Positions 12,191 to 43,133 of a DNA stretch of 64,000 bases are shown one piece after another. The notes under the pieces are model-generated. The model was not told where the DNA came from. It made no database searches and saw only the letters and a list, made by a program, of their open reading frames with translations. A program made the translations under genes and the position numbers. Positions within the stretch are counted from its first letter, which is position 1, and the number at the start of each line of letters is the position of its first letter. The stretch comes from Candidatus Limnocylindrales bacterium (GTDB lineage Bacteria > Chloroflexota > Limnocylindria > Limnocylindrales > CSP1-4). The stretch lies in contig JBBRSJ010000014.1 in NCBI GenBank assembly GCA_038245515.1, positions 12,955 to 76,954 on the forward strand, written 5' to 3'.

Positions 12191-12274
12191 GTGGCGAGCA
12201 TGAGCACCGCCGATCGGGCGGGCTCGTTCGCCGATGCTGGCCCAGGCGCGGGACGCCGCCGCGGGACGCGAGGC

Positions 12275-13603: not shown

Positions 13604-13681
13604 GGCGGCGAAGCGTAGCGGGTCCGCGAGATCCGCCGGCGGGCTCCGCCGCGTACACTCGGACGAAGGAGGATCACGAGG

Positions 13682-14545: not shown

Positions 14546-14574
14546 TGGGCGGCACGGGGGCCGGCGCAATCGGA

Positions 14575-28654: not shown

Positions 28655-29272
28655 TCAGGCGCGACCCTCGAGGTCGCTCGGCGTGTCGATGTCGCGGAGC
28701 GTCGCGCTCTCGGGATCGAGCGGGCGCCAGGCGCCCTCCTCGATCATCCGGGTCGGCAGCCGCTCAAACAGGCCACGCAGGCTGCGCTCGCCGTCGGCGA
28801 CCAGGCGGGCGGCGCTGCTCGACGCGACCCCGGTCCGCACCGCGACCGGGAGCGGCTCGAGCCGGCCGCGCGACTCCAGGGCGATCGCCGCGATGCCGTC
28901 GTCGGCATGGACCAGCGTCCGGATCAGCAGCTCGAGGACCGTCGCGCGCAGGTCGGGCATGTCGCCGGCGACGACGATCGCAAGCGGTTCGGCAACGGCT
29001 TCGAGGCCGGCGACGAGGCCGACGAGCGGGCCGCCGTCGGCCTCATGATCGTGGACGGTCCGGATCGCGACGCCGCCGGAAGGCACCGCGCGCCGATCGC
29101 CGAGCGCGACGACGACGACGACGTCGGTCGCAACCGCGGCGACGCCCCGGATCGCGCGCTCGAGGAGCGGCGAGCCGTCGACGGAGGCCCGCAGCTTGTC
29201 CCTGCCGAACCGGGTCGAGCCGCCACCGGCGAGCACGATGCCACTGACTGCGGCGCGATCTCGGTCGGTCAC
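28655..29272 (-). CDS. mobA: molybdenum cofactor guanylyltransferase MobA
   Basis: LAGGGSTRFGRDK, GGPLVGLVAGL and AGDMP motifs. GTG 29272 overlaps the selB stop (GTGA). Confidence 0.85.
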   Translation of the reverse strand: MTDRDRAAVSGIVLAGGGSTRFGRDKLRASVDGSPLLERAIRGVAAVATDVVVVVALGDRRAVPSGGVAIRTVHDHEADGGPLVGLVAGLEAVAEPLAIVVAGDMPDLRATVLELLIRTLVHADDGIAAIALESRGRLEPLPVAVRTGVASSSAARLVADGERSLRGLFERLPTRMIEEGAWRPLDPESATLRDIDTPSDLEGRA

Positions 29273-31167
29273 CGCGGCGAGACGGGCTCAGCCACCGTCG
29301 ACGCCCGTGGCCCGGGCACGTGCCCGTCCGGCGTGCGGCGCAGGATCGCCCGGCGGTCGAGGTCCTCGAGGATCGCCATTGCGTACTTGCGGCTGCTCCC
29401 GGTCGCGTCGCGCAATGCGGCGGGCGTCAGCGGCGCAGCCGCGGCCATCGCGAGCGCCTGCGCGGCAACCTCGCGCCACGCCGCTGCGGACCAGGCGAGG
29501 TCATCGGCGAGCCGGACGATCCGGCCGTCGCGTTCGAGCAGCCGGACGCCCTCCGGCGAGCAGCCGGCATCCCGGGCGGCGGCGGGCAGCGGCGGCGGCG
29601 TGGCGCCGGAGAGCAGTGCGACCAGGCGATCCATCGCGGCGATCAGCTCCGGTGGAGGCGTCGGGGCCAGGGCGCCAAGCGGCCGGATCCGGTCGCCATC
29701 GCGCACGAGACGCCCGTCCGCGACGAGCGCATCGACCCGGTTGGAGACGAGGCGCCGAGCCGGGTCGACGGCGGCGTCCGCGGCGGCCAACGGCCCGACA
29801 CGGCGACGGAGCTCGGCCTGGCCGACCCGCGCAAGCTCGCCCGAGCGGATACCCGGCGACGCGTCGACGGCGCCGACGAGCGCCGCATCGACTGCAGCGG
29901 CGACGTCCGGCGCGACATTCGGTGGCGACCCGTCGAGGGCGCCGTGGAGCTGGACCCGGGCGTCTAGCCAACCAACGGACGAGGGCGCCGCCGCCGCCAG
30001 TGCCCCAAGCCGTTCCGAGGTGATCCGGCGGCGGGCCACGCCGTGGGCCGGACGCGGGTCGAGGATCCGCCCACCGGCCAGCGTCTCGACCGGCGAGGGA
30101 CGCCGGAGGACGAATCGATCGCCCGGCGCGGCGGCGATGGGGTGGGCCAGCCGGAGGATCGCCGACGTCTCGCCAGAGCCGAGATCCTGGCTGTCGCGCC
30201 CGGCCCGGCCGACGGCCGCCGCGACGCGCGCAGTCCCGAGATGGAGGACCGTCGGGGTTCGATCCGGTGGCAGCGACGAGACCACGTCGTGGCGCTGTCC
30301 GAGGTCGGCGGGCGGCCGCAGTGCGACGAGGACGCGGTCGGTCGTCACGATCGCGGGATCGTCGGTGAGGACGGCGCCGCGCTCGAGACCGGCGACGAGT
30401 TCGCCGCCGAGGTTGAGCGCGACCCGGCCCGGGACGCCCCGCTCCATCGTTGCGCCGTGGACCTGGACCTCGCGGATGCGGACGTCAGCGGCGTCCTTGC
30501 CCGCCGGCACGACGCGCAGCCGGTCGCCGCGCGCGATTGGCCGTCCGCGAAGCGTCCCGGTGACGACGGTGCCGCGGCCGCGGATCGAGAAGACGCGGTC
30601 GATCGCGAAGCGGGTCGTCACCCCGTTGGAGGCGGCGTCCGCAGCGCGAGCAATCTGGATGCGGTCCCGGAGGGCGGCGAGCGCCGCGCGCACCCCGGCG
30701 AGCCCCGCGCCAGTCGTCGCCGAGGCCGCAATGACGTCGATGTCGCGGAGCGCCGTCTTCCCGAGCAATGCACGGACCTCCGCCATCACCACGGCCACAC
30801 GCTCCGCCGGGACCGCGTCGGCCTTGGTCACGACCGCCAGGCCATCGCGAATCGCGAGCGCGTCGAGGAGCTCGAGGTGCTCTCGCGTCTGCGCCCGCGG
30901 CCCGTCATCGGCGGCGACAACGAGCAGCGCCGCGTCGATCTCGCCCGCGCCGACGAGCATGTTGCCGACGAGCCGGTCGTGCCCCGGGACGTCGACGAAA
31001 TCGATCTCGGGCCCGCCGTCCGGGGCGCCGTGCGCGTACCCGACGTCGATCGTCATCCCACGCTCGCGCTCCTCGGGCAGCCGATCGGCGTCGATGCCGG
31101 TGAGCGCTCGCAGGAGCGTCGTCTTGCCGTGATCGATGTGGCCCGCGGTGCCGACGACGACGGTCAT
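29269..31167 (-). CDS. selB: selenocysteine-specific translation elongation factor SelB
   Basis: GTPase G1 GHIDHGKTTL, then DVPGH and VVTKAD. The C-terminal winged-helix tail is SRKYAMAILEDLDRRAILRR. ATG 31167 overlaps the selA stop (ATGA). Confidence 0.9.
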   Translation of the reverse strand: MTVVVGTAGHIDHGKTTLLRALTGIDADRLPEERERGMTIDVGYAHGAPDGGPEIDFVDVPGHDRLVGNMLVGAGEIDAALLVVAADDGPRAQTREHLELLDALAIRDGLAVVTKADAVPAERVAVVMAEVRALLGKTALRDIDVIAASATTGAGLAGVRAALAALRDRIQIARAADAASNGVTTRFAIDRVFSIRGRGTVVTGTLRGRPIARGDRLRVVPAGKDAADVRIREVQVHGATMERGVPGRVALNLGGELVAGLERGAVLTDDPAIVTTDRVLVALRPPADLGQRHDVVSSLPPDRTPTVLHLGTARVAAAVGRAGRDSQDLGSGETSAILRLAHPIAAAPGDRFVLRRPSPVETLAGGRILDPRPAHGVARRRITSERLGALAAAAPSSVGWLDARVQLHGALDGSPPNVAPDVAAAVDAALVGAVDASPGIRSGELARVGQAELRRRVGPLAAADAAVDPARRLVSNRVDALVADGRLVRDGDRIRPLGALAPTPPPELIAAMDRLVALLSGATPPPLPAAARDAGCSPEGVRLLERDGRIVRLADDLAWSAAAWREVAAQALAMAAAAPLTPAALRDATGSSRKYAMAILEDLDRRAILRRTPDGHVPGPRASTVAEPVSPR

Positions 31168-32555
31168 TGGCGAGCCGGGGCGAGGCCCCCGATCCGGCGC
31201 ACGATCGTGCCGTCGTCGAACGGCGCGACGGTCCGCAGGTCGAAGACGATCGTTTCGTCGACGATGCGGGCCAGGATCCGGTCGGGGCCCGCTCGCAAGG
31301 CGGCGGCGGCCCGCGTCGCCGACGCGACGGGCACCGACACGCCGACCGACGGCAGGACCTGGCCCGGAAGCGAGCCGCCGCCGACGGGCGACTCGAGCGC
31401 GATTGCCGTCAGGTCGGTGCGGCCGGCAACGGCCATGACCTGGCTGAGGATCCACTCCGCCCGAACTCGGAGCGACTCGACCGGAAGGGCGATCATCCGC
31501 CAGACCGGGATGGTATCGGCGGCCCGACCGGAGCGGTAGATCGCGAGCGTGGCGGCGACACCGGCGAGGATCGCCTTGTCGGGACGGACCGCCCGTGCCA
31601 GTGGGTCGCGCCGAAGCTTCTCGACCAGATCCGCGCGACCGACGATCAGCCCGGCCTGCGGCCCGCCGATCAGCTTGTCGCCGCTGAACAGGACGAGATC
31701 CGCGCCGAGGGCGAGCCGCTCGGCCGGCGTGGGCTCGTGGGCGAGGCCGAACATTGTCGTGTCGAGCAGGGCCCCGGATCCGAGGTCGTCGATCACGATC
31801 GCGCCGTGGCGATGGGCGATGCCCGCGACCTCGGCCAGGTCGGCGCTCTCAGTGAAGCCGCTGATCGCGAAGTTCGACGGATGGATCCGGAGGACGAGGC
31901 GGGTCTTGCCCGCCGCGAGCGGCGGCTCGAAGTCCGCAGCCCGGGTCCGGTTCGTCGTGCCGACCTCGATCAGACGGACGCCGGCCCGGCCGAGGACATC
32001 GGGGATCCGGACGCCGCCGCCGATCTCGACGAGCTCGCCGCGCGAGACGACCGCAGAACCGCCGCGCCCCGCGAGTCCGACCGCCAGCGCGAGGGCGGCG
32101 GCGTTGTTCGACACCACCATCGCGTCCTCGGCGCCGGTCAAGGCCACCAAGTGGTCCTCGGCGGCGCGATAGCGCGGTCCCCGGCGGCCGGTCGCCTCGT
32201 CGAGCTCCAGATAGCCGTAGGAGCGGGCGGCGGCCATTGCGGCGACGCGTGCCGCGCGCGGCCACGGCGCGCGGCCGAGGTTCGTGTGGAGGATCACGCC
32301 GGTCGCGTTGATGACGTGCGGCGGGATCGTGAGGAGAGGATCGTCGAGGTCGTCGAGGCGGTCCTCGACTGCCTCGGCCAGGTCGCCCTCGGGCGTCGGC
32401 GGCGCCCCGGCGGCCAGGCGGCGTCGTTCCTCGGCGACGACCGCGCGGGCGAGGCGGGTGAGGGCGTCGCGTTCCGAGACCTCGATGCCGTTCGCCTCGA
32501 GGATCGAGAGCAGGCGGTCGACGCTCGGCGGTCGCGCGGCCGGAGCCTCAGTCAC
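31164..32555 (-). CDS. selA: L-seryl-tRNA(Sec) selenium transferase SelA
   Basis: PLP-lysine region FSGDKLIGGPQAG, VINATGVILHTNLGRAP, and N-terminal SVDRLL. GTG 32555 lies 36 nt downstream of tRNA-Sec. Confidence 0.9.
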   Translation of the reverse strand: MTEAPAARPPSVDRLLSILEANGIEVSERDALTRLARAVVAEERRRLAAGAPPTPEGDLAEAVEDRLDDLDDPLLTIPPHVINATGVILHTNLGRAPWPRAARVAAMAAARSYGYLELDEATGRRGPRYRAAEDHLVALTGAEDAMVVSNNAAALALAVGLAGRGGSAVVSRGELVEIGGGVRIPDVLGRAGVRLIEVGTTNRTRAADFEPPLAAGKTRLVLRIHPSNFAISGFTESADLAEVAGIAHRHGAIVIDDLGSGALLDTTMFGLAHEPTPAERLALGADLVLFSGDKLIGGPQAGLIVGRADLVEKLRRDPLARAVRPDKAILAGVAATLAIYRSGRAADTIPVWRMIALPVESLRVRAEWILSQVMAVAGRTDLTAIALESPVGGGSLPGQVLPSVGVSVPVASATRAAAALRAGPDRILARIVDETIVFDLRTVAPFDDGTIVRRIGGLAPARQ

Positions 32556-32591
32556 GATCGGGCACCCTCTCGTCGTCCTCCTGGGCCGCGA

Positions 32592-32688
32592 TGGCGGGAG
32601 CGCATGGGAGTCGAACCCACCACGCCACGCCAAGCGCAGCGTCACCGGTTTTGAAGACCGGGGGACCCACCGGGACCCAACCACTCCC
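32592..32688 (-). tRNA. selC: tRNA-Sec (anticodon UCA), 97 nt with encoded CCA
   Basis: Hand-folded. The D-stem is 6 bp (GGGTCC/GGGTCC with G-U pairs) with a 4-nt D-loop. The anticodon loop CTTCAAA has TCA at 32652-32654 (plus-strand tga). The variable stem is 8 bp, and the T arm is GTGGG-TTCGACT-CCCAT. The acceptor stem is 7-8 bp, with a G discriminator and CCA. Confidence 0.9.
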
Positions 32689-32827
32689 CCGCCAGCGATG
32701 GTAGCGCGGCGGCCGCGACGGACCGATGAGTTTCCCGGCGGAGCGACGTCTGAACGGTTGGCGCCGACGGAGACTCAATTCACGAGGCTTCGCCGGCGCC
32801 TCCGTCCGTCCGCCCTATCATCGGCCG

Positions 32828-33907
32828 GTGACCACGCTCGACGCCCCGACCCTCCCGCCGATCCGCCTGACCGAGCTGACCGACTGCGGCGGCTGCGCGG
32901 CAAAGCTCGGGGCGGACCTGCTCGCGGATGCGCTGAGCGGGCTCGGGGCGGGATCCGCGGAGCCCGAGCCGGCCAAGCTGATCGTCGGGCTGGAGCATGC
33001 CGACGACGCCGCCGCGTACCGCATCAGCGACGACCTCGCGATCATCGGCACGCTCGACTTCTTCCCGCCGCTCGTCGACGATGCCCGGACGTTCGGCGAG
33101 ATCGCGGCCGCGAACGCGCTGAGCGACGTGTTCGCGATGGGTGGCCGCGTCCTCTTTGCCCTGTCAATCGCGGCGTTCCCCGAGGAACTGCCGCGGGACA
33201 CGCTGGCGGCCGTGTTCGACGGTGCCGCGGCCAAGGTCCGCGAAGCGGGTGGCACGCTCGCCGGCGGCCACACGATCCGCGATCCGGAGCCCAAGTACGG
33301 GCTCGCGGTGATCGGCGCCGCCCACCCGGACCGCCTGTTGCGCAAGGGCGGCGCCCGGCCCGGCGACGTGCTCGTGCTCACCAAGCGCCTCGGCACCGGC
33401 CTGCTCGTCAGCGGGCACCGTCAGGGCAAGGCCGACGCGACCGATCTCGCGGCGGCCATCGACCAGATGCGACGCCTCAACCGGGCAGCGTCGGAGGTCT
33501 TCGTCGCCCACGCGATCGCCGGCGCCACGGACGTCACCGGGTTCGGCCTCCTCGGTCACGCCCTCGAGATGGCGCGCGCCTCGGGCACCCGCTTCGTGCT
33601 CATCGCTTCAGACCTGCCCGCCCTCGGGGGCGCGCTCGACCTGGCCGCCGCCGGCGTCGAGACCGGAGGGGCGGCCTCCAATCGGCGCTTCGTTCTGCCG
33701 GCTCTGGATGTCGCGGAGGGTGTGCCGGCGGAGCTCGTCTCGCTGGGCCATGACCCGCAGACCTCGGGCGGGCTGCTTGCCGCCGTGACGCCGGCGGCCC
33801 TCGACGCCGTCCGGGCAGGGCTGATCGACGCCGAGGTCGAGCACTGGATCGTCGGACGGGTCGAAACGGTCGATCCGGAGGGGGCGCCCGGCGTCCGTCT
33901 GGCGTGA
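32828..33907 (+). CDS. selD: selenide, water dikinase SelD (Cys-type)
   Basis: N-terminal LTDCGGCAAKLG (Cys rather than Sec), plus DDAAAY, LDFFPP and NALSDVFAMGG. The start is GTG 32828, with the ORF-track alternative at 32726. Confidence 0.9.
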   Translation: MTTLDAPTLPPIRLTELTDCGGCAAKLGADLLADALSGLGAGSAEPEPAKLIVGLEHADDAAAYRISDDLAIIGTLDFFPPLVDDARTFGEIAAANALSDVFAMGGRVLFALSIAAFPEELPRDTLAAVFDGAAAKVREAGGTLAGGHTIRDPEPKYGLAVIGAAHPDRLLRKGGARPGDVLVLTKRLGTGLLVSGHRQGKADATDLAAAIDQMRRLNRAASEVFVAHAIAGATDVTGFGLLGHALEMARASGTRFVLIASDLPALGGALDLAAAGVETGGAASNRRFVLPALDVAEGVPAELVSLGHDPQTSGGLLAAVTPAALDAVRAGLIDAEVEHWIVGRVETVDPEGAPGVRLA

Positions 33908-34578
33908 TCGTTGCCGTGATTCCGGCCCACGACGAGGCGCCGCGGATCGCGGCGGTCGTTGCGGGGGCGCGGGTCCACCTGCCGGTTGTCGTCGTCGACG
34001 ACGGCTCGAGCGATACGACGGCCGCCACAGCGCGTGAGGCCGGAGCCACGGTCGTCGAGCAGCGCCCGAACCAGGGCAAAGGCGCCGCGCTCCGAGCCGG
34101 CTTCCGGCGCGCGCTCGACGACGGCGCGGAGGCGATCCTCGCCCTGGATGCGGACGGCCAGCACGATCCGGCGGAGATCCCGCGGTTTCTCGCCGCCCGC
34201 CTCGCCGACCCGAACGTCGATCTCGTCATCGGAGCGCGCAACTTCCGCTCGATGCCGCCGTCCCGGCGGCTGTCGAACGTGCTCGGCGGACGAGCATTCT
34301 CGTGGGCCGTCGGGCGCGAGATCCCCGACAACCAATCGGGCTACCGGCTCGTGTCGAGGCGTCTCGCGGAAGCGACCCTTGGCAGCACGGAGACCGGCTT
34401 CGCGTTCGAGGTCGAGCAGATCACGACCTGTATCCGACTGGGCGGCTCGATCGCCTGGGTCCCGATCCGGACGATCTACGCCGGCGCGCCATCGCACATC
34501 CGCCCGATCGCCCACCTCCGCGAGTTCGTCCGGATCGTCCGGACCGCCCGCCGCGACGTCCGCCGCCGACTCGGCTGA
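33904..34578 (+). CDS. glycosyltransferase family 2 (GT-A, DPM1-like), 224 aa, soluble
   Basis: Contains VIPAHDE, VVVDDGSSD, QGKGAALRAG and the DxD-type segment LDADGQHD. GTG 33904 overlaps the selD stop (GTGA). Confidence 0.85.
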   Translation: MIVAVIPAHDEAPRIAAVVAGARVHLPVVVVDDGSSDTTAATAREAGATVVEQRPNQGKGAALRAGFRRALDDGAEAILALDADGQHDPAEIPRFLAARLADPNVDLVIGARNFRSMPPSRRLSNVLGGRAFSWAVGREIPDNQSGYRLVSRRLAEATLGSTETGFAFEVEQITTCIRLGGSIAWVPIRTIYAGAPSHIRPIAHLREFVRIVRTARRDVRRRLG

Positions 34579-34584
34579 CGGCCG

Positions 34585-34761
34585 TCACGGCCGACCGCTC
34601 GCTGGCGGCCCGGCGAGCGTCACGACTTCGATCACGACCCGGTTCGCGTAGCCGCCGACCACGTAGACCAGGACCAGGACGAGGGCAGCGACGCTCAGCG
34701 TGATCGCCAGTCCGGCGACTCTCGCTTCGTGGACGCGCGATCGATCGCGCTGAACGGGCAT
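34585..34761 (-). CDS. possible small single-TM protein (58 aa)
   Basis: Found by manual translation: MPVQRDRSRVHEARVAGLAITLSVAALVLVLVYVVGG... It has no clear Shine-Dalgarno sequence and is below the ORF-track length cut-off. Confidence 0.25.
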   Translation of the reverse strand: MPVQRDRSRVHEARVAGLAITLSVAALVLVLVYVVGGYANRVVIEVVTLAGPPASGRP

Positions 34762-34911
34762 CGCGGGAGCCTAGCAGCGGTGGGGAGGCGCTTGCGCGGT
34801 GCAGCGACCGACGGGGCCTACCGATGCCGCCCACCGTCGTCCTCCACGATCGTTCCGCCGGCCCCTGCGCAGCGATAGACTCCCAAGGTCAAGCGTTCGC
34901 AGGAGGCACTC

Positions 34912-36825
34912 GTGCCGAAGAACTACGTTCGACTGACCCAGCCACTCGTCCGCGACTCGAAGGACGCGCCGTTGCGCCCGGCGAGCTGGGACGAGGCCCT
35001 CACCCGGGTCGTCGCGGGCTTCCAGGCGGCGAAGGCCGCTCACGGACCGACGACGTTCGGGGTCTTCTCGTGCTCGAAGGCGACCAACGAGGTCAACTTC
35101 GCCGCTCAGAAGTTCAGCCGGGCCGTGCTGGGCAGCAACAACATCGACAGCTGCAACCGGACCTGACACGCCCCGAGCGTCGCCGGTCTGGCGACCGTGT
35201 TCGGTGCCGGTGGCGGCACAAGTTCATACCGTGAGGCCGAAGAGACGGACCTGATCGTCCTGTGGGGCAGCAATGCCCGCGAGACGCACCCGATCTTCTT
35301 CCACCACCTCCTCCGTGGCGTCCGCAACGGCGCCCGGCTGTACGCGGTCGACCCGCGTCGGACGAGCAGCGCCGAGTGGGCCGACGTGTGGCTCGGGCTC
35401 GACGTCGGCTCGGACATCGCCCTCGCCAACGCCGTCGGCCGCGAGATCATCGCCGCCGGCCTCGAGGACAAGGCCTTCATCGACCGCGCGACGAGCGACT
35501 TCGAGGCGTACAAGGCCAAGGTCGAGAGCTACACCCTCGAGTACGCCGAGCGCGAGACGGGCGTCCCGGCCGACGCGATCCGCGAGCTCGCCCATGCGTT
35601 CGCGACGGCCGACAAGGCGATGATCTGCTGGACCCTCGGGATCACCGAGCACCACAACGCGGTCGACAACGTCCTCGCCCTGATCGATCTCGTGCTCCTG
35701 ACCGGGCATGTCGGGCGCTGGGGCAGCGGCGTCAACCCGCTCCGCGGCCAGAACAACGTCCAGGGCGGCGGCGACATGGGCGCCCTCCCGGACCGGCTGC
35801 CGGGCTTCCAGCACGTCGAGAACGACGAGCTCCGGGCGAAGTTCGACGCCCTCTGGGGCGTCACCGTCCCGCCGAAGCGCGGCTGGCACCTGTCGGGCAT
35901 GTTCGACGCGATGGAGCGAGGCGAGCTCCAGGCCCTCTACGTGATCGGCGAGAATCCGGTCCAGTCCGAGGCCGACCAGAAGCGCGCCAGGCATCTTCTC
36001 TCGACCCGCGACTTCATGGTCGTCCAGGACATCTTCCTGACTGCGACCGCGGAGCTCGCCGACGTCGTCCTTCCGGCCGCCGCCTCGTGGGCCGAGAGCG
36101 AGGGCACCGTCACCAACTCCGAGCGACGCGTCCAGCGGGTCCGCAAGGCGCTCGAGCCACCGGGCGAGGCCCGCGACGACCTGTGGATCGTCGAGGAGAT
36201 CGCGCGCCGGATGGGCGCCGACTGGGGCTGGAAGACCGCAGAGGACGCCTGGAACGAGGTCCGGGCGTTGTCGCCGGTCCATGCCGGGATGTCCTACCAG
36301 CGGCTCGAGGAGCTCGGTGGGCTCCAGTGGCCGTGCTACGACGAGAACCACCCCGGCGAGCTGTTCTTGCACAGCCGGCTGTGGGAGGACCCGGTACCGG
36401 GCAACCGGGTGCCATTCGTCGCGGTCGACCACGATCCGCCGGTCGACAAGCTGTCCGACGACTTCCCGATCCGGCTCACCACGGGGCGCCGGCTCGACTC
36501 GTACAACACCGGTGTCCAGACCGGCGGCTACACCTCGCCATTGCGGCGCGGCGAGTCGCTCGACATGTCGCCGGAGGACGTCGCGGCATACGGGCTGGCC
36601 GAGGGCGAGCGGGTCCGCGTCGTGTCGCGCCGGGGCCAGGTCGAGGTTCCGATCCGTCTCGACGAATCGCTTCGGCCGGGGCTGACGTTCATGACCCTCC
36701 ACTTCCAGGACGACGTGGCGACGAACCTGCTGACGATCGACGCGACCGACCCCAAGTCCGGAACGGCCGAGTTCAAAGCGACCGCGATCCGGATCGAGAA
36801 GCTCGTGGCCCCCGTCTCCGCCTGA
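34912..36825 (+). CDS. fdhA: formate dehydrogenase catalytic (molybdopterin) module, selenocysteine-containing; lacks the N-terminal Fe-S domains
   Basis: ORFs 34912..35166 and 35197..36825 are in the same frame and are joined by TGA 35164-35166. The context NIDSCNRT-U-HAPSVAGL matches the FdhF ARV-U-HGPSVAGL active site. AGGAGG lies 5 nt before GTG 34912. Confidence 0.9.
35164..35195 (+). promoter_or_regulatory. UGA(Sec) codon plus bacterial SECIS hairpin
   Basis: After the TGA come 18 nt and then the apical loop GGTCT, flanked by GTCGCC/GGCGAC. The loop sequence and the spacing are the same as in the E. coli fdhF SECIS (UGA + 18 nt + GGUCU). Confidence 0.8.
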
Positions 36826-37164
36826 CCGCGAATGCGCGTGACGATGCCTCCCGGCTCCTCCCGGGCCCTCCCTCCCGGCCCCGAAATTGACAATCGAATC
36901 TCACCCGGGCGGTAGGCGAGAACGTTCTGTCCAGCGACCGCGTGGGATTCGCATGACAAGTACTCGATCGGTTTCCACGCTCAGCGGGGACGGAGTCGGC
37001 GCGGACGCGCTGTCTTGCGACCGTCTGGGATCCGTTTGACAAGAATCACGTCGGCCCCGGGGTGAGCGCCCCTGCAGACCGCGTTGAAACGGAGCGAGTC
37101 GCGCGGACCTCGGTCTGGGAACGCGTCGCGACAGGGCCAAGCGGAGCGCCGTTAGACTGCGTCG

Positions 37165-37592
37165 ATGACCCTCCCCGCCCGGATCAGCATCGTGACGATC
37201 GGAGTGGCCGATGTCGCCGGCTCGGTCCGGTTCTACGAAGCCCTCGGCTGGGAACGCTGCAGCTCCTCGATGGACGCGATCGCCTGGTTCCGGACCGCCG
37301 GCAGCTACCTCGGGGTCTTCGGTTGGCACGATCTGGCCGAGGACGCCAACGTCGTCGAGCCGACCCGCGGTTCGTTCGGCGGGATCACGCTGGCGATCAA
37401 TGTCGAGATGCCGAGGCCGTCGATGCCGCGCTGGATGAGGCCGTTGCGGCAGGTGGCACCATCCTCAAGCCGGGAACAGAGCTCCCGTTCGGCTATGGCG
37501 GCTACTTCGCCGACCCGGACGGCCATCCCTGGGAGGTCTGCCACAACCCGGGCTTTCCGATCGGCCCGGACGGCCGAATCACGGTCGACTGA
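37165..37592 (+). pseudogene. VOC (glyoxalase/bleomycin-resistance) family protein with an apparent 1-nt frameshift near 37407
   Basis: The N-terminal half (MTLPARISIVTIGVADVAGSVRFYEALGW...GGITLAINVE) is in the frame of ORF 37165. The C-terminal half (DAEAVDAALDEAVAAGGTILKPG...YFADPDGHPWEV) is in the frame of ORF 37062..37592. Confidence 0.7.
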
Positions 37593-38074
37593 TGGCGGAC
37601 CTCGGGCATCGCACGTCGCGCGTGGTCGACCAGGGGCCCGGCATCGTCCACGATCGGCTGCTCCAGCTCGCAGCACGCCTGAAGACCGAGCTGCCGCCGA
37701 TCGAGCCCGGAACACAGGCGGCGACCGTCCTCGGGGTCAGCGGCCCGATCGAGGTCGAGATCGTCGATCGCGGGCCGAGTCGGATCGAGCTCCGGACGAC
37801 CGAGGGCCGGATCCGCGGCGAGGGGGCCGTCGTCCTGGCGCCGGTCGACGACGGCGCCCGGACGAACCTGGCGATGGCCCTCGACATCAGGCCCCAGGGG
37901 TTCGCCGCGAACATGATGCTCGGCGTCGCACTCAAGACAATGCCGAACATCGAGCGCCAGGTGATCGACGGGCTCGAGACGGCGCTCGACGACCTCGCCC
38001 GCGAGCTTGCGAAGCCGGACGATCAGTGGGACCCGGCCGCCTGGAACCCGCCGGGGCTGCCAACCCGCGGCTGA
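37592..38074 (+). CDS. hypothetical protein, possibly SRPBCC/CoxG-like
   Basis: ATG 37592 overlaps the VOC stop (TGATG). The 160-aa protein has a beta-rich core and a C-terminal helix. The family assignment is tentative. Confidence 0.55.
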   Translation: MADLGHRTSRVVDQGPGIVHDRLLQLAARLKTELPPIEPGTQAATVLGVSGPIEVEIVDRGPSRIELRTTEGRIRGEGAVVLAPVDDGARTNLAMALDIRPQGFAANMMLGVALKTMPNIERQVIDGLETALDDLARELAKPDDQWDPAAWNPPGLPTRG

Positions 38075-38148
38075 GACTTTCCGCCGCCCCACCGCGGGTG
38101 CATCATGCGGCCACAGGTCAGACATCTGGAGCGGGTGGGAGGCTGGAC

Positions 38149-38580
38149 ATGCCCGGCGCGGAACGGACGATCGTGATCGATCGCAGCCTCGACGAGGTCT
38201 TCGCTTTCTTCGCGACGCCCGGCAACGACCCTCGCTGGCGACCGCACGTCAAGGAGATCCGGGCGGAGGGACCGGCCGGCGCGGGTGCCCGCGTCCATCA
38301 GGTCGTCGACGGGCCGGGCGGCCGCGGGATCGCCGCCGACATCGAGATCACCGCGTACAACCCGCCGTCGCGCTACGCGTTCAAGGTCGTCGCCGGTCCC
38401 GCCCGTCCGGTCGGCGAGTTCCGGTTCGAGCCGTCCGGTGCGGGGACGAGCGTCCACTTTTCGCTCCGCGCGGACCTTGGCGGGCTGAAGGGACTGATCA
38501 TGTCGCGCCCCGTCCAGTCCTCGATGAATGGCGAGATGGCGGCGCTCGACACGGCCAAGCGCCTGATCGAAAGCAGCTGA
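38149..38580 (+). CDS. SRPBCC family protein (polyketide cyclase/dehydrase-like)
   Basis: ATG 38149 follows GGGTGGGAGG. The N-terminal signature is IVIDRSLDEVFAFFATPGNDPRWRPHV. Confidence 0.8.
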   Translation: MPGAERTIVIDRSLDEVFAFFATPGNDPRWRPHVKEIRAEGPAGAGARVHQVVDGPGGRGIAADIEITAYNPPSRYAFKVVAGPARPVGEFRFEPSGAGTSVHFSLRADLGGLKGLIMSRPVQSSMNGEMAALDTAKRLIESS

Positions 38581-38937
38581 GGCCGGCCCATCGCCCACGT
38601 CGAGAGGCGCAGACGCCGGCTTGATCGTGGCCGCGGCTGTCGCCACCACGTCGTCGTCTCGAGCACCGTAAACGACCGCGGGACTCGATCGAGCTGCCCG
38701 GGACCCGGTCCGTTCCGAGCGGCCGCGCGGCGCGGCTCGATCACGCCCAGCCGGCTGCACGCGAGCCGTTCCGACTCGACAAACCAAGGCACCATGCCGG
38801 CAGACTCGGCTTCGACAACGACGAGCCTCGTCAGGGCCGACGAGTCGACGTGCGCCCAAACGTGATTCTCGACCCGCCATCCTGTCACCCTCAGGTTCCA
38901 CGGTCGCGAGGGGCGATCGACCATTGAAGGAGTCCCG

Positions 38938-39258
38938 ATGGGCCACTACCTGATCAAGGCGTCGTACACCCAGGCAGGCATCCAGGGAGTCCTGAAGGAT
39001 GGCGGCAGCGGTCGCCGGGCAGCGATCGACGCCCTCGTCGCGAGCGCCGGCGGGACGATCGAATCCTGTTACTGGGCTCTCGGTGAGGACGACATCTTCA
39101 TCACGGTCGAGTTGCCGGACAATGCCGCGGCCGCCTCGATCGCGGCCACGGTCGGAGCGACCGGCGCCGCATCGATCACGACCACCGTGCTCCTGACTGC
39201 GGCCGAGGTCGACGCCGCGGTCGCGAAGCATCCGTCGTATCGCGCTCCGGGCGGCTGA
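38938..39258 (+). CDS. GYD domain-containing protein
   Basis: MGHYLIKASYTQAGIQGVL...GGTIESCYWALGEDDIFITVELPD is typical of the GYD family. A GAAGGAG Shine-Dalgarno sequence lies upstream. Confidence 0.85.
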   Translation: MGHYLIKASYTQAGIQGVLKDGGSGRRAAIDALVASAGGTIESCYWALGEDDIFITVELPDNAAAASIAATVGATGAASITTTVLLTAAEVDAAVAKHPSYRAPGG

Positions 39259-39313
39259 TCAGACCCAACCTCGATCCGGAGCAAACTGCGCCGCGGGCGC
39301 GCGTCACGCGTCC

Positions 39314-41182
39314 GTGACCGCCGCGGCTACACTCGGCGGGATGGATCTGCACGTCATCGGGCCGCTTGCGAGCGCCGCCGAGCGGGCGGCCGTTGACGCC
39401 GTCCTCGGACCGCCCGAGTCGGGCTGGCGCGGCGGCGTCCGCGACAGTGGGCTCGACGGCCATATCGCCCGCGGCGGCCACGACGCTCGTTCCCGGCGCG
39501 ACCTCCTGATCCCCGCGCTCCATGCCGTCCAGTCCCGGATCGGCTGGATCAGCCAGCCAGCGATCAACGACATCTGCAAGCGGCTGACGATCCCGCCGGC
39601 CGAGGCGTGGGGCGTCGCGACGTTCTACGCCTTGTTCGCGACGACGCCGCGCCCGGCGGTGGTCGCCCACGTCTGCGATGACCTTGCGTGTCGCCTCGCT
39701 GGCTCCGAGGAGCTCTGCGCCGATCTCGAGCGGACGATCGGCCCCGAGGGTGCGGCGGGCGTCGACGGCGACCGGACGTGGCTGCGCTCGCCGTGCCTCG
39801 GGGTCTGCGAACGCGCGCCAGCGGCGATGATCACGAACGCCGGAACGGAGCCGACGACGATCGTCGCCGCGCCGGCGGATGCGGCCGGGATCCTCGCCCG
39901 GACGGAGCCGAACGGCGGCTCGACCTCGTATGGCGACCCACCGATCCCCCAGGCCGGCCGGGCCGGCCTGCGCCTCCTTGCCCGGGTCGGCGTCGTCGAT
40001 CCCGAGTCGCTCGACGACTACCGCGCCAACGGCGGCTTCCGCGCTCTCGAGCGGGCTCGCGCGATCGGCCCGCAGCGGGTGATCGACGAGGTCACCGCGG
40101 CCAACCTCGTCGGTCGCGGCGGAGCGGCCTTCCCCACCGGCCGGAAGTGGGCCGCGGTCGCCACCCAGCCCGTGCAGCCGCACTACCTCGTCTGCAATGC
40201 CGACGAGTCGGAGCCCGGGACGTTCAAGGACCGCGTCCTCATGGAGGGCGACCCGTTCGCCGTCGTCGAGGCGATGGCGATCGAGGCGTTCGCCGTCGGG
40301 GCGCAGAAGGCGTACCTCTACATCCGCGGCGAGTACCCGCTGGCGGAGGCACGAATCACGAACGCGATCGATGCCAGCCACGATGCCGGGCTCCTCGGCG
40401 ATCTCGACATCGAGCTCCGGCGCGGCGCCGGTGCCTACATCTGCGGCGAGGAGACCGCGCTCTTCGAATCGATCGAGGGCAAGCGCGGCGAGCCGCGCAA
40501 CAAGCCGCCATTCCCGGTTGAGGTCGGGCTGTTCGGCAAGCCGACGGCGGTCAACAACGTCGAAACGTTGCTCAATGTGCTCCTGATCGTCGCCGAGGAG
40601 GGCGGGGCCGAGGCGTACAAGGCGATCGGCACGGACGGCTCGACCGGCCCGAAGCTGTTCTGCGTGTCTGGCAATGTCGCCAAGGCCGGCGTCTACGAGG
40701 TCGAGTTCGGCGTCACGCTCGGCGAGCTCCTGGCCCTCGCCGGCGGCATCCCGGACGGTCGCGCGCTGAAGGCGGTCCTGATGGGCGGCGCTGCCGGCGT
40801 GTTCGTCGGATCCGAGGCCCTCGACACGCCCCTGACCTTTGAGGCGACGCGCGCGATCGGAGCCACTCTCGGCTCGGGCGTCGTGATGGTCTTCGACGAG
40901 AGGGCGGATCTCGTCGGAGCGCTGACCCGGATCGCGCGCTTCTTCCGCGACGAATCGTGCGGCCAGTGCGTCCCGTGCCGGGTGGGGACCGTCCGCCAGG
41001 AGGAGCTGATGGCGCGGTTGGCGTCCGGCGCCGCCGCGGCGCACGGCCGGCGGGACGACGAGCTGGCACTCCTAACGGAACTCGGGCGGGTCATGCGCGA
41101 CGCCTCGATCTGCGGTCTCGGCCAGACGGCCAGCTCGGCGATCGAGAGCGCCATGCGCCGGCCGGACCTGGTGGCGCTGTGA
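39314..41182 (+). CDS. NAD-dependent formate dehydrogenase diaphorase subunit, NuoE-NuoF fusion (FdsG-FdsB-like)
   Basis: NuoE-like region: HVCDDLACRLAG. NuoF region: GRGGAAFPTGRKW, ESEPGTFKDR and the 4Fe-4S motif ESCGQCVPCRVG. Confidence 0.9.
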   Translation: MTAAATLGGMDLHVIGPLASAAERAAVDAVLGPPESGWRGGVRDSGLDGHIARGGHDARSRRDLLIPALHAVQSRIGWISQPAINDICKRLTIPPAEAWGVATFYALFATTPRPAVVAHVCDDLACRLAGSEELCADLERTIGPEGAAGVDGDRTWLRSPCLGVCERAPAAMITNAGTEPTTIVAAPADAAGILARTEPNGGSTSYGDPPIPQAGRAGLRLLARVGVVDPESLDDYRANGGFRALERARAIGPQRVIDEVTAANLVGRGGAAFPTGRKWAAVATQPVQPHYLVCNADESEPGTFKDRVLMEGDPFAVVEAMAIEAFAVGAQKAYLYIRGEYPLAEARITNAIDASHDAGLLGDLDIELRRGAGAYICGEETALFESIEGKRGEPRNKPPFPVEVGLFGKPTAVNNVETLLNVLLIVAEEGGAEAYKAIGTDGSTGPKLFCVSGNVAKAGVYEVEFGVTLGELLALAGGIPDGRALKAVLMGGAAGVFVGSEALDTPLTFEATRAIGATLGSGVVMVFDERADLVGALTRIARFFRDESCGQCVPCRVGTVRQEELMARLASGAAAAHGRRDDELALLTELGRVMRDASICGLGQTASSAIESAMRRPDLVAL

Positions 41183-42255
41183 GCGGCGACGGCGTGAGCA
41201 TGGATCGTGACCCGGCCGGCGTGTCCAACGTGCCGCACGCCGGGGAACCGCCGGCGGCCCAGCCACTCACCGACATCCTGCTCCGTCCGGCCGCCCGGTC
41301 CAGCCGGCCGCCGGAGGCACCGCCCGCGCCGGTGCGGGCTCCGGTCGAGCTCACGATCGACGGCGCGCCGGTCAGCGTCCCGGCCGGCTCGACGATCCTC
41401 GAGGCCTGCCGAGCGGAGGGCATCGACACGCCGACGCTCTGCTACCTCGAGAACCTGACGCCAGTCAACGTCTGCAGGGTCTGCGTGGTCGAGGTAACTG
41501 GGTCGCGCGTGCTCGTCCCGGCCTGCTCGCGCAAGGTCGAGGCGGGGATGGACGTCCAGACCGATTCGGAGCGGGTCCGCCACAGCCGGAAGATGGTGCT
41601 CGAGTTCCTCGGCTCGTCGGTCGACCTCTCGACGGCGCCGGCCGCCAATGCCTACATCGAGCGCTACGACGCGAACCCGGCACGCTACGGTCCGCCGACC
41701 CCACCGGCGGCCGTCGGCGAGCGCGACGCCCACGAACCGGGCCATCACCACGCTCCGCCGGTGACGGCCGCTCAAACCGTCGCGCAGCCGGTCAAGGTCG
41801 ACAACGACCTCTACGTCCGGGACTACTCGAAGTGCATCCTCTGCTACAAGTGCGTCGAGGCCTGCGGCGAGGATGCCCAGAACACGTTCGCGATCGCGGT
41901 GGCCGGACGGGGCTTCGACGCCCGGATCTCGACCGAGGCCGCGGTTTCCTTGCCCGAGAGCGCCTGCGTCTACTGCGGCAACTGCATCGGCGTCTGTCCG
42001 ACGGGCGCCCTGATGTTCAAGAGCGAGTTCGACATGCGGGCGGCCGGCACCTGGGACGAGAGCGCCCAGACGGTGACCGAGACGATCTGCCCGTACTGCG
42101 GCGTCGGCTGCGCCCTCGAGCTCCACGTCCAGGACAACACGATCGTGACGGTGACCTCGCCGCTCGACTCGTCCGTGACCGACGGCCACCTCTGCGTGAA
42201 GGGCCGGTTCGGCTTCGCCTTCGTCCAGAGCCGGGGACCACGCCAGGTTCCCTGA
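41179..42255 (+). CDS. formate dehydrogenase alpha subunit N-terminal Fe-S module only (NuoG-like 2Fe-2S, two 4Fe-4S ferredoxin motifs, Molybdop_Fe4S4)
   Basis: Cluster motifs CYLENLTPVNVCRVC...C, CILCYKCVEAC, CVYCGNCIGVCP and CPYCGVGC...C. The protein ends at VKGRFGFAFVQSRGPRQVP, with no molybdopterin domain. GTG 41179 overlaps the upstream stop, and ATG 41200 is an alternative. Confidence 0.85.
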   Translation: MSGDGVSMDRDPAGVSNVPHAGEPPAAQPLTDILLRPAARSSRPPEAPPAPVRAPVELTIDGAPVSVPAGSTILEACRAEGIDTPTLCYLENLTPVNVCRVCVVEVTGSRVLVPACSRKVEAGMDVQTDSERVRHSRKMVLEFLGSSVDLSTAPAANAYIERYDANPARYGPPTPPAAVGERDAHEPGHHHAPPVTAAQTVAQPVKVDNDLYVRDYSKCILCYKCVEACGEDAQNTFAIAVAGRGFDARISTEAAVSLPESACVYCGNCIGVCPTGALMFKSEFDMRAAGTWDESAQTVTETICPYCGVGCALELHVQDNTIVTVTSPLDSSVTDGHLCVKGRFGFAFVQSRGPRQVP

Positions 42256-42266
42256 CGGCCGGACGA

Positions 42267-43133
42267 TCAGTCGAACGCGAGCAGGTCGCGGAGGTCGATC
42301 CGCTCGTCGTGGGCGTAGACGTTGAAGCCGGCGCCGCGGAGGAAGCCGACGAGGGTCACGCCAAGCCGATCGGCCGCTTCGATTGCGAGGTCGGAGGGCG
42401 CCGACACGGCACAAAGGACCGGGATGCCCGCGACCGCGGCCTTCTGGACGATCTCGAAGCTGACCCGCCCGCTCACCATCAGGATCCGGTCGTTGAGCGG
42501 CAGCGCGCCGGCCATCACCTGCGAGCCGACGAGCTTGTCGAGCGCGTTGTGGCGGCCGACGTCCTCGCGCAGCGCAAGGAGCTCGCCGGTGGGCGTGAAC
42601 AGGCCCGCGGCGTGGAGCCCGCCCGTCTGGTCGAACGCCCGCTGGGCGGCCCGGAGAAGGTCGGGCAGGGCGAGGATCACCGATCGCTGGACGACCGGGC
42701 CGTCGGGGATGGACTCGGATCGGACGGTCACCTCGTCGAGCGAGGCCTTGCCGCAGATCCCGCACGACGCGGTCGCAACGAAATGGCGCTCGGCGACCTT
42801 CGAGGCATCGAACGCCTTGGCCAGGTGGACGGTGATTTGGTCGTCCGGCTGGCTCATCGCCGTCGGGTCGCCGACCGTGGCCCGGATCACCTCGGGCCCG
42901 GCGATCAGGCCTTCGGTCCGGAGGAACCCGATCGCGAGCTCGTCCTCGTGGCCCGGAGTTCGCATCGTGATGGCGACAGCCACGGGCTCCTGGCCGGGAC
43001 CGGCGGCGCGGATCTCGAGTGGCTCCTCGCCCACGACCCGGTCCGCGCGGAACTCCAGGGAGTTGCCCCGAACGGCCACGATCCGGGTCGTCGTGACGTG
43101 CCGCGTCGGGGGAGCGAGGGGGTCGGGATCCAC
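42267..43133 (-). CDS. fdhD: formate dehydrogenase accessory sulfurtransferase FdhD
   Basis: The SCGICGKASLD active-site loop and GLHAAGLF are present, and the protein is about 288 aa. Confidence 0.9.
   Translation of the reverse strand: MDPDPLAPPTRHVTTTRIVAVRGNSLEFRADRVVGEEPLEIRAAGPGQEPVAVAITMRTPGHEDELAIGFLRTEGLIAGPEVIRATVGDPTAMSQPDDQITVHLAKAFDASKVAERHFVATASCGICGKASLDEVTVRSESIPDGPVVQRSVILALPDLLRAAQRAFDQTGGLHAAGLFTPTGELLALREDVGRHNALDKLVGSQVMAGALPLNDRILMVSGRVSFEIVQKAAVAGIPVLCAVSAPSDLAIEAADRLGVTLVGFLRGAGFNVYAHDERIDLRDLLAFD

Follow-up and report, generated by a model that had tools for sequence, protein, structure and literature searches.

A probable selenocysteine-dependent formate dehydrogenase with an alpha subunit divided between two genes in a Candidatus Limnocylindrales bacterium

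Analysis of a 64,000-nucleotide stretch of DNA from a Candidatus Limnocylindrales bacterium (the window) revealed a plus-strand gene at positions 34912 to 36825 for the catalytic module of a formate dehydrogenase alpha subunit (637 amino acids including Sec85, about 70 kDa). Pfam detected only the pterin domains Molybdopterin (PF00384, 9e-70, residues 7 to 432) and Molydop_binding (PF01568, 9e-27, residues 521 to 624) in its product; Molybdop_Fe4S4 (PF04879) was absent from the Pfam results for this gene, as a preliminary description of the locus had claimed. These domains bind Mo/W-bisPGD, and the translation contains the active-site motifs CNRT-U-HAPS, with the Sec-His dyad, and NPLRGQNNVQG, with the RGQ arginine; the proximal 4Fe-4S cluster (FS0) is missing. 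Active sites of the U/C-H ... RGQ type form class I of a formate dehydrogenase scheme (PMC8808070), and the Sec, His, and RGQ arginine place the catalytic protein in this class. Comparison with FdhF, FdhH, and FdsA structures in the PDB gave E values of 1e-128 to 1e-145. The GTG start codon at 34912 follows, by 5 nt, an AGGAGG Shine-Dalgarno sequence (34901 to 34906, plus strand), both read from the sequence and both as previously reported. An in-frame TAG (34876 to 34878) lies 12 codons 5' of this start and the upstream translation contains no Cys motif; an overlooked in-frame Fe-S extension is thus not present. GC3 frame analysis favored plus-strand coding for this gene and for the Fe-S gene described below.

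The catalytic gene contains an in-frame UGA (35164 to 35166, plus strand) within the CNRT-U-HAPS context, assigned to selenocysteine from translation and conservation. TGA is retained in every related locus covering the site except L072, an error-ridden contig. A predicted SECIS hairpin (GUCGCC-GGUCU-GGCGAC; 35179 to 35195, plus strand) begins 15 nt past the UGA and is nearly invariant across 53 distinct sequences, synonymous sites included; three loci (L036, L074, and L078) show a compensatory change from C-G to G-C. Its GGUCU loop presumably resembles that of the E. coli fdhF SECIS.

The maturation functions listed in the preliminary description were all recovered from the window. On the minus strand lie genes for a MobA-like molybdenum cofactor guanylyltransferase (28655 to 29287; Pfam NTP_transf_3, 3e-27), which NCBIfam MobA models match only below their cutoffs, for the Sec-specific elongation factor SelB (29269 to 31167; TIGR00475, 274 bits, cutoff 242), and for SelA (31164 to 32573; Pfam SelA, 5e-112), together with selC, a tRNA-Sec with anticodon UCA (32592 to 32688; ARAGORN; Rfam RF01852, 71 bits). 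A selD-like gene on the plus strand (32726 to 33907) has the Pfam domains AIRS and AIRS_C and, judged from these domains and the gene context, probably encodes selenophosphate synthetase. The features by which a bacterial selenoprotein is recognized are all found: the in-frame UGA, the SECIS hairpin, and selA, selB, selC, and selD. The sulfurtransferase FdhD, a formate dehydrogenase maturation factor, is encoded on the minus strand (42267 to 43133; PF02634, 1e-66; NF001943, 276 bits, cutoff 269); this gene is convergent with the Fe-S gene and adjoins the operon in most related loci.

Downstream of the catalytic gene, positions 39314 to 41182 (plus strand) encode a NuoE-NuoF fusion protein of 622 amino acids with the Pfam domains 2Fe-2S_thioredx, Complex1_51K, SLBB, and NADH_4Fe-4S. 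This protein is an NAD(H)/FMN module with one 2Fe-2S and one 4Fe-4S cluster and corresponds to Fdh1B, or to FdsG and FdsB together. It scored 422 bits with TIGR01959, and the MeFDH1 beta subunit (7e5z_B, 5.5e-103) was among its best PDB matches; FdsB was also matched. The protein ends 7 residues past the NADH_4Fe-4S domain, and Pfam found no C-terminal Fer4 domains. An electron-bifurcating complex of the Bfu/HydABC type was rejected on the grounds that the HydB-type C-terminal 2x[4Fe-4S] ferredoxin domains are lacking.

Between the catalytic and NuoEF genes lies a lineage-specific insert (36826 to 39313, plus strand) that, according to Pfam and the translations, is not part of the enzyme. It holds four plus-strand open reading frames: a VOC/glyoxalase gene (37165 to 37592), an open reading frame of unknown kind (37592 to 38074), an SRPBCC gene (38149 to 38580), and a GYD gene (38938 to 39258). 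Four unrelated genes had been reported in this gap; all four reading frames are there, but the VOC/glyoxalase gene is frameshifted. The content of the insert varies among relatives, and the insert is nearly absent outside Limnocylindria, where the gap from catalytic gene to NuoEF measures 3 to 230 nt and the three genes are tightly packed. The 4.4-kb spacing of the catalytic and Fe-S genes, correctly noted before for this window, reflects an insertion of variable genes specific to Limnocylindria and is not a general property of the arrangement. Since 2.5 kb of unrelated genes separate the catalytic gene from the other two, their coexpression in the window is not guaranteed.

The Fe-S module of the alpha subunit is encoded at 41179 to 42255 (plus strand; 358 amino acids, about 35 kDa). 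Its GTG start overlaps the TGA stop of the NuoE-NuoF gene as GTGA, the junction previously proposed. Pfam assigned Fer2_4 (residues 54 to 130) and Molybdop_Fe4S4 (298 to 350), and two ferredoxin-type Fer4 motifs lie between them (about 213 to 278), so that all of the cluster domains claimed for this gene were found. The ligands are C88/99/102/116 for the 2Fe-2S cluster, C219/222/225/229 and C263/266/269/273 for two 4Fe-4S clusters, and C304/307/311/339 for FS0, with Lys341 nearby in the sequence; all 16 Cys ligands and K341 were conserved without exception among 12 sequences labeled with diverse phyla. The protein ends in CVKGRFGFAFVQSRGPRQVP, followed directly by the stop codon. Homologues formed more than 120 clusters per search, with lengths of 293 to 404 amino acids throughout. 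Assignment of the protein as HoxU was rejected: NF005745 gave 136.6 bits against a cutoff of 333 and aligned over the 2Fe-2S region only, and the FS0 domain is present.

Taken together, the catalytic and Fe-S proteins correspond to one alpha subunit. The NCBIfam model TIGR01591 (Fdh-alpha) matches the catalytic protein over positions 53 to 672 with 656.1 bits, short of the equivalog cutoff of 666.25 bits, and the absent positions 1 to 50 match the Fe-S protein with 50.5 bits. Likewise, in R. capsulatus FdsA (6tg9_A, 958 amino acids) the Fe-S protein covers residues 18 to 303 and the catalytic protein residues 308 to 932. Pfam, TIGR01591, and the FdsA alignment thus agree with the earlier proposal of two complementary modules in permuted order. 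The catalytic protein has the domains and the active site of FdhF/FdsA-type enzymes; FS0 and the CxKG lysine are not on the polypeptide that holds the pterin domains, and both are on the product of the gene at 41179 to 42255. Of the features of Fdh1AB/FdsABG-type enzymes, the NuoF-like FMN subunit and the NuoE-like domain are present, and the NuoG-like Fe-S chain occurs as a separate polypeptide. No remnants of the missing halves were found in the window or in any related locus.

Eighty related loci were fetched, and all three genes were in view in 59. In each of these 59, the three genes lie on one strand in the order catalytic, NuoEF, Fe-S, and each shares the break point, with a stop after CxKGRFG and a catalytic gene start just before RLTxP. 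Chance is far from explaining the split, whose break point is identical in all of the related loci examined. According to the record titles, the loci come from Chloroflexota, Acidobacteriota, Planctomycetota, Actinomycetota, Gemmatimonadota, and Rokubacteria; the arrangement, described before as unusual, is no single case but a large conserved family spread, by these titles, over several phyla. Every member of the split form that was seen comes from a metagenome-assembled genome or metagenome, and no cultured host or isolate was found. The dN/dS values of the three genes lie between 0.11 and 0.37 (catalytic gene, 0.11 to 0.25; Fe-S gene, 0.16 to 0.37), indicating purifying selection, and neighbor-joining trees of the catalytic and Fe-S halves are congruent. 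A fused conventional Sec FdhA occurs in one locus (L053), in which the unbroken junction reads CLKGRFAYDFPSSPERLTTPLMR. No published description of a split, permuted Sec formate dehydrogenase was found, and the arrangement has apparently not been described before.

Comparison with characterized enzymes revealed likenesses to several systems. In M. extorquens Fdh1AB, the alpha subunit carries one 2Fe-2S cluster, three 4Fe-4S clusters, and bisPGD, and the beta subunit carries FMN, 4Fe-4S, and 2Fe-2S (PMC13397495). In this tungsten enzyme (MeFDH1; PDB 7VW6 and 7E5Z), beta is also a NuoE-NuoF fusion, the cofactor inventory of Fdh1A equals that of the Fe-S and catalytic proteins combined, and both PDB chains are strong matches. 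Fdh1A, however, is one polypeptide of approximately 990 amino acids with Cys at the metal, whereas here two polypeptides are cut after FS0 and Sec is the ligand; the gene order catalytic, beta, Fe-S differs as well. FdsABG(D) from Rhodobacter capsulatus and Cupriavidus necator (PDB 6TGA, 6TG9, and 6VW7) gave the best match for the Fe-S protein (E value 1.6e-48); it too is cytoplasmic and NAD-linked and has a maturation factor of the FdhD/FdsC type. In contrast to the genes studied here, FdsA is fused and has a Cys ligand, and FdsG and FdsB are separate proteins instead of a NuoE-NuoF fusion. FdsA also has an extra His-ligated 4Fe-4S cluster (HxxxCxxCx5C), in place of which the split family has a Cys-free segment and a conserved insert; the cofactor set therefore matches that of M. 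extorquens Fdh1A and not that of FdsA.

The top matches to the catalytic protein were E. coli FdhH and the Thermoanaerobacter kivui HDCR subunit FdhF (PDB 1FDO and 7QV7; 4e-145 and 2e-138), with which it has the Sec-His dyad and the PLRGQNNVQG arginine motif in common. Lys44 in the FS0 domain is essential in EcFDH-H (PMC12176258). FdhH and FdhF carry their own FS0 domain and lysine, whereas here both reside on the other polypeptide. Formylmethanofuran dehydrogenase FwdB/FwdD has an FDH-like Mo/W-bisPGD catalytic unit that is naturally on two polypeptides, and FwdB (PDB 5T5I_B) matches residues 6 to 175 of the catalytic protein. Its break is at the opposite end: the C-terminal dinucleotide-binding cap is separate and FS0 stays on the catalytic chain. 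In the HoxEFU diaphorase and in Gottschalkia acidurici HylABC-FdhF2, a separate Fe-S protein resembling the NuoG N terminus wires a NuoEF-type flavoprotein to the catalytic subunit. These systems keep the cluster nearest the active site in the catalytic subunit, whereas here FS0 would be delivered in trans.

On the strength of these sequence comparisons, the window very probably encodes a cytoplasmic, three-polypeptide, Sec-dependent Mo/W formate dehydrogenase of the NAD-linked Fdh1AB/FdsABG kind, with an alpha subunit permanently split between FS0 and the pterin domains. The catalytic, Fe-S, and NuoEF proteins are predicted to assemble into one complex. Formate would be oxidized at the Sec-Mo/W-bisPGD site of the 70-kDa catalytic protein, and the electrons would then leave this protein across a protein-protein interface and reach FS0, which is part of the separate Fe-S protein (about 35 kDa); the Fe-S protein would also supply in trans the conserved lysine placed between FS0 and the pterin. 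From FS0 the electrons may be relayed by the pair of ferredoxin-type 4Fe-4S clusters, whether or not the 2Fe-2S cluster takes part, to the NuoE-NuoF protein; its 4Fe-4S cluster and FMN would receive them, and NAD+ is the likely acceptor there.

The pieces could instead be the products of an assembly chimera or of a broken, decaying fdhA, two halves of one gene no longer functional. The window alone could not exclude this, and five loci (L002, L006, L013, L072, and L083) contain fragmented copies; these are confined to error-prone, low-coverage long-read contigs in which neighboring genes are broken too. The 59 assemblies that repeat this order and break point are independent, and their record titles name six or more phyla. 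At the junction, every locus provides both pieces with start and stop codons of their own; the dN/dS values indicate constraint, and all cluster ligands are invariant. We judge misassembly or decay refuted by the recurrence, the dN/dS values, and the ligands, and consider it scarcely credible; the checks for a chimera and for a decaying fragment in relatives were both negative. Since uncultured bacteria with assignments to six or more phyla share the arrangement, the split is a genuine enzyme design and no assembly error. Conservation of the split, purifying selection, and the missing upstream extension support the earlier reading of a natural, functional domain fission. It is also very unlikely that the pieces belong to different enzymes, with NuoEF and the Fe-S protein forming a HoxEFU-like diaphorase for another partner and the catalytic protein acting alone or with some other partner as an FS0-less molybdoenzyme. 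The Fe-S protein does resemble HoxU and the NuoG N terminus, some enzymes of the DMSO reductase family lack FS0, and in Limnocylindria variable genes part the catalytic gene from the other two. Yet FS0 domains that bear the CxKGRFG lysine are not known to function apart from a pterin domain, and the two pieces jointly complete TIGR01591 exactly. Moreover, all loci showing both pieces have them in one and the same order, their phylogenies are congruent, and the genes are closely spaced outside Limnocylindria.

A further alternative accepts the same architecture and assigns it CO2 reduction, with formate feeding a reductive glycine/folate C1 route, or NADP(H) as the nucleotide. Metal-dependent formate dehydrogenases are reversible, the CO2-reducing enzymes of anaerobes are often the Sec-containing ones, and one relative (L001) has genes for MetH and a glycine-cleavage T protein close to the operon. 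On the other hand, the window shows no gene set for a Wood-Ljungdahl or a reductive glycine pathway, and the NuoEF subunit does not belong to the bifurcating type, the usual driver of CO2 reduction. The NAD-linked enzymes Fdh1AB and FdsABG serve formate oxidation in their hosts (PMC13397495). We regard this alternative as unlikely and NAD-linked formate oxidation as the better reading.

The central part of a tandemly duplicated alpha-beta operon would have the gene order catalytic, NuoEF, Fe-S, which could have originated in this way. A benefit of the split may lie in the UGA at codon 85: failed Sec decoding would cost just an 84-residue peptide, whereas the same failure in a fused enzyme would yield an Fe-S protein of approximately 390 residues able to bind NuoEF. 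The split might also keep the apo catalytic protein open at the FS0 side for cofactor insertion. In NarG and DmsA, FS0 is assembled before Moco insertion and the FS0 segment touches the cofactor (PMC5123574); FS0 supplied in trans therefore demands an assembly order for which no precedent is known. Tentatively, and with more doubt than confidence, we suggest that these enzymes form a distinct, ancient, and widespread class of Sec formate dehydrogenases, with FS0 and the active-site lysine on a different polypeptide from the Mo/W center. This class may have arisen by an operon-level circular permutation, the split being kept to uncouple Sec-dependent synthesis and pterin loading from Fe-S and flavin assembly, with a cofactor order unlike the FS0-first order of NarG and DmsA.

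Molybdoenzymes of this superfamily have their FS0 domain packed against the pterin cofactor. The cofactor is considered to be inserted only once FS0 has been assembled (PMC5123574). A family whose FS0 has been kept on a polypeptide of its own in several phyla offers a natural experiment on folding, cofactor loading, and intersubunit electron transfer, and the modular split design could interest engineers of CO2-reducing formate dehydrogenases. Public records label the Fe-S protein only as "2Fe-2S iron-sulfur cluster-binding protein," "YjgC," or "HndD" and truncate the catalytic protein at the UGA; the capacity for formate oxidation is therefore probably undercounted in bacteria assigned to Chloroflexota, Acidobacteriota, Planctomycetota, and Actinomycetota.

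Analysis of the formate dehydrogenase locus revealed an alpha subunit encoded by two separate genes. The catalytic gene (34912-36825, plus strand) starts with a GTG codon 5 nt after an AGGAGG sequence (34901-34906), and an in-frame TAG is positioned upstream at 34876-34878. Its product begins with VPKNYVRLTQPLVR, and Pfam predicted only Molybdopterin and Molydop_binding domains. The Fe-S gene (41179-42255, plus strand) encodes 358 residues that comprise a Fer2_4 domain, two ferredoxin-type 4Fe-4S motifs, and the Molybdop_Fe4S4 domain of the proximal cluster (FS0); this product terminates eight residues past CVKGRFGFAFVQS. A NuoE-NuoF fusion gene (NuoEF; 39314-41182, plus strand) precedes the Fe-S gene, and its TGA overlaps the GTG of the latter. 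A GC3 frame plot favored plus-strand coding for both the catalytic and the Fe-S piece and identified a minus-strand ORF over the end of the Fe-S gene as spurious. In the protein collection, the catalytic piece appears solely as a 542-amino-acid ORF following the UGA, and the Fe-S piece is publicly listed under generic names. A promoter and terminator scan of 34500-42500 revealed no promoter-like site and a single terminator-like site, located inside a gene.

Comparison with fused enzymes showed that the two products together cover one protein. Positions 1 to 50 of the NCBIfam model for the formate dehydrogenase alpha subunit (TIGR01591) matched the Fe-S piece, and positions 53 to 672 matched the catalytic piece, which scored 656 bits (cutoff, 666). 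Alignment to Rhodobacter capsulatus FdsA (6tg9_A) placed the Fe-S piece on residues 18 to 303 and the catalytic piece on residues 308 to 932. Neither a second copy nor a remnant of either half was found in the window, and neither there nor in any of the related loci did the sequence preceding the catalytic gene or following the Fe-S gene contain traces of the missing halves. The preliminary description of split and permuted genes thus proved correct throughout with respect to ORFs, Pfam domains, the TIGR01591 and FdsA alignments, and maturation genes.

The catalytic gene contains an in-frame TGA at 35164-35166 within the motif CNRT-U-HAPS, and its active site corresponds to class I (U-H ... 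RGQ) in the classification scheme of PMC8808070. A hairpin, GUCGCC-GGUCU-GGCGAC, starts 15 nt past the UGA. Folding of this region as a single sequence was no better than that of shuffled sequences (z = -0.7); such a fold is uninformative at 70% G+C (approximately 70 to 73% in the window near the locus), and a comparative alignment was therefore used instead. The hairpin was nearly unchanged in 53 distinct sequences, third codon positions included, and three loci carried the compensatory change GUGGUC...GGCCAC. The selenocysteine (Sec) machinery (28655-33907), with selB, selA, and tRNA-Sec on the minus strand, a divergent selD, and a MobA-like gene, lies directly upstream of the formate dehydrogenase genes, separated from them only by a GT2 glycosyltransferase gene (33904-34578). 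Together with FdhD, the window thus holds all of the maturation genes that had been claimed for it. The conserved hairpin, the compensatory change, and the adjacent sel genes make Sec decoding the only reasonable reading of the TGA. One relative (L001) has a MerR/B12-binding regulator at this upstream position in place of the Sec machinery.

A scan in which each GTDB species was represented by one genome found 519 relatives; the best 80 loci were fetched and searched by tblastn with four window proteins. Wherever all three genes were in view (59 loci), the catalytic gene, NuoEF, and the Fe-S gene occurred in this order on one strand. Every locus has an Fe-S ORF that ends 0 to 40 codons past CxKGRFGxxF and a catalytic ORF that begins a few codons ahead of RLTxP, with an in-frame stop upstream. 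A TGA occupies the Sec position in all readable loci except one error-ridden contig. The record titles name Chloroflexota (mostly Limnocylindria), Acidobacteriota, Planctomycetota, Actinomycetota, Gemmatimonadota, and Rokubacteria. Operons on contigs labeled Saccharimonadales (L010), Verrucomicrobiia (L011), and Binatia (L048) were 73 to 88% identical to those of Limnocylindria; these contigs are probably mis-binned rather than derived from real hosts. With the Fe-S piece as the query, a protein search gave at least 120 clusters with 81 to 93% identity; among the matches listed, nearly all were 341 to 375 amino acids long, six were 383 to 404 amino acids long, and the named clusters were mostly Candidatus Limnocylindrales. 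The top 120 matches of each protein search included only MAG or metagenome proteins and no cultured host. No fused near relative was found in the 50% representative library, in which the matches were mostly fragments. Several apparent NuoF-Fe-S fusion proteins in this library were rejected as frameshift artifacts; one of them was traced to a long-read contig with 4x coverage (L083) in which every gene is broken.

In loci outside Limnocylindria, the genes lie close together, with 3 to 230 nt between the catalytic gene and NuoEF, whereas in Limnocylindria 0.05 to 7 kb of variable genes is inserted (2.5 kb in the window). The separation of the two halves by 4.4 kb, as previously noted, therefore holds for the window but is not a general trait; the three-gene unit is older, and the wide spacing is a local peculiarity. 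The insert between the catalytic gene and NuoEF in the window includes an ORF of 160 codons (37592-38074) with a good GC3 coding signal and no Pfam or NCBIfam match. The DUF5946 gene found between these genes in L001 showed no similarity to this ORF, which indicates that the inserted genes are variable cargo and not a conserved subunit. Just downstream of the catalytic gene, a VOC/glyoxalase gene (37165-37592) shows a frame shift near 37405-37420, with the N-terminal half read in frame 1 and the C-terminal half read in frame 3. Since both halves are in a single frame in L005 (6209-6637), the window copy represents an assembly error or a pseudogene.

A misassembly or a decaying gene could likewise give rise to two pieces, but this explanation is excluded by the recurrence of the same order and break point across the 59 loci and by the sequence constraint on the genes. 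Comparison of the window with 14 Limnocylindria loci by the Nei-Gojobori method gave dN/dS values of 0.11 to 0.25 for the catalytic gene, 0.20 to 0.34 for NuoEF, and 0.16 to 0.37 for the Fe-S gene (0.11 to 0.37 over all three). In 12 aligned Fe-S pieces with diverse phylum labels (68 to 76% identity to the window), all 16 of the 16 cluster cysteines and Lys341 were invariant. Neighbor-joining trees of the catalytic and the Fe-S pieces revealed the same groups, largely tracking phylum labels, which indicates that the operon was already split when it spread. Some loci are exceptions, suggesting a degree of horizontal transfer or mis-binning: the Binatia contig nests within Limnocylindria, and three Chloroflexota genomes (L043, L058, and L063), two of them complete chromosomes, fall within the Acidobacteriota group in both trees, which suggests horizontal transfer of the whole operon. 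It is also unlikely that the two halves function independently of each other, because they always co-occur and co-evolve and because we know of no role for an FS0 domain away from a pterin domain. The recurrence across loci, the dN/dS values in the purifying range, and the congruent trees support the earlier interpretation of the split as a natural, functional fission.

With regard to enzyme identity, the His-ligated 4Fe-4S motif (HxxxCxxCx5C) of FdsA and NuoG is missing from the Fe-S piece. At its place (residues 146 to 205; 41614-41793), a Cys-free SSVDLSTAP is found together with a conserved insert (...ERYGPP..GERD..PGHHH...) in which Y163, P167, R169, G171, R182, D183, G188, and H190 are invariant. 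Approximately the first 50 residues (41179-41328) are Pro/Ala-rich and occur only in Limnocylindria-type relatives; homologs in other phyla begin near residues 47 to 57. Given the missing motif, one 2Fe-2S and three 4Fe-4S clusters are predicted for alpha, and FMN, 4Fe-4S, and 2Fe-2S are predicted for beta (NuoEF), a cofactor set identical to that of Methylobacterium extorquens Fdh1AB in a 2026 review (PMC13397495). The NuoEF protein contains NuoE 2Fe-2S, NuoF FMN/NADH, and NuoF 4Fe-4S domains, and MeFDH1 beta (5.5e-103) and Cupriavidus necator FdsB are among its matches in the PDB. Pfam revealed no extra ferredoxin domains, and the protein is therefore not of the bifurcating HydB type. Judged by sequence, the enzyme is a formate dehydrogenase of the Fdh1AB/FdsABG type, probably NAD-linked, that differs from these systems in the split of alpha after FS0, in the permuted gene order, and in Sec instead of Cys as the metal ligand. 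The Limnocylindrales contig L053 carries the split operon together with a conventional fused Sec-containing FdhA (11780-14550, minus strand) followed by NuoE/NuoF (11610-9517), with 35 to 45% identity to the window proteins; unlike the window Fe-S piece, this paralog has the His-ligated motif (HDCLTCEATGRC). The open-access literature searched, including a long review of metal-dependent formate dehydrogenases, gave no account of a formate dehydrogenase with a split alpha subunit.

The chain ends at the split junction are adjacent residues in fused enzymes (...CLKGRFAYDFPSSPERLTTPLMR... in L053), and the complex would thus be expected to resemble a nicked FdsA or Fdh1A. Electron transfer from the Mo/W-Sec site to FS0 would pass from one subunit to another. 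The first conserved residue of the catalytic piece is the invariant Arg of RLTxP, which may correspond to the salt-bridge arginine of the NarG/DmsA type. Lys341 of the Fe-S piece would be the in-trans equivalent of Lys44 of Escherichia coli FdhH, which is essential for activity and cluster retention (PMC12176258). In NarG and DmsA, FS0 is assembled first; Moco is inserted afterward, and the pocket is then closed by a salt bridge of a conserved arginine (PMC5123574). The catalytic and Fe-S proteins might meet prior to Moco loading, or the catalytic protein might be loaded while its FS0 side is open, with the Fe-S protein capping it afterward.

An alpha-beta operon duplicated in tandem would give, in its middle part, the observed order of catalytic gene, NuoEF, and Fe-S gene. 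In P0147, a 1,405-amino-acid protein from the representative library, a single ORF spans a complete fused alpha with its Fe-S domains, FS0, Molybdopterin, and Molydop_binding, then a further Fe-S/FS0 block, and finally the beginning of an additional Molybdopterin domain; the protein is 40% identical to the window Fe-S piece. In domain order, this tandem alpha-alpha protein resembles the intermediate required by the duplication model of permutation. The split might also be of benefit: with the UGA at codon 85, failed Sec insertion would yield a peptide of 84 residues, and the same failure in a fused enzyme would yield an Fe-S protein of approximately 390 residues able to bind NuoEF. The split formate dehydrogenase is a conserved family across several phyla and not a curiosity of one genome.
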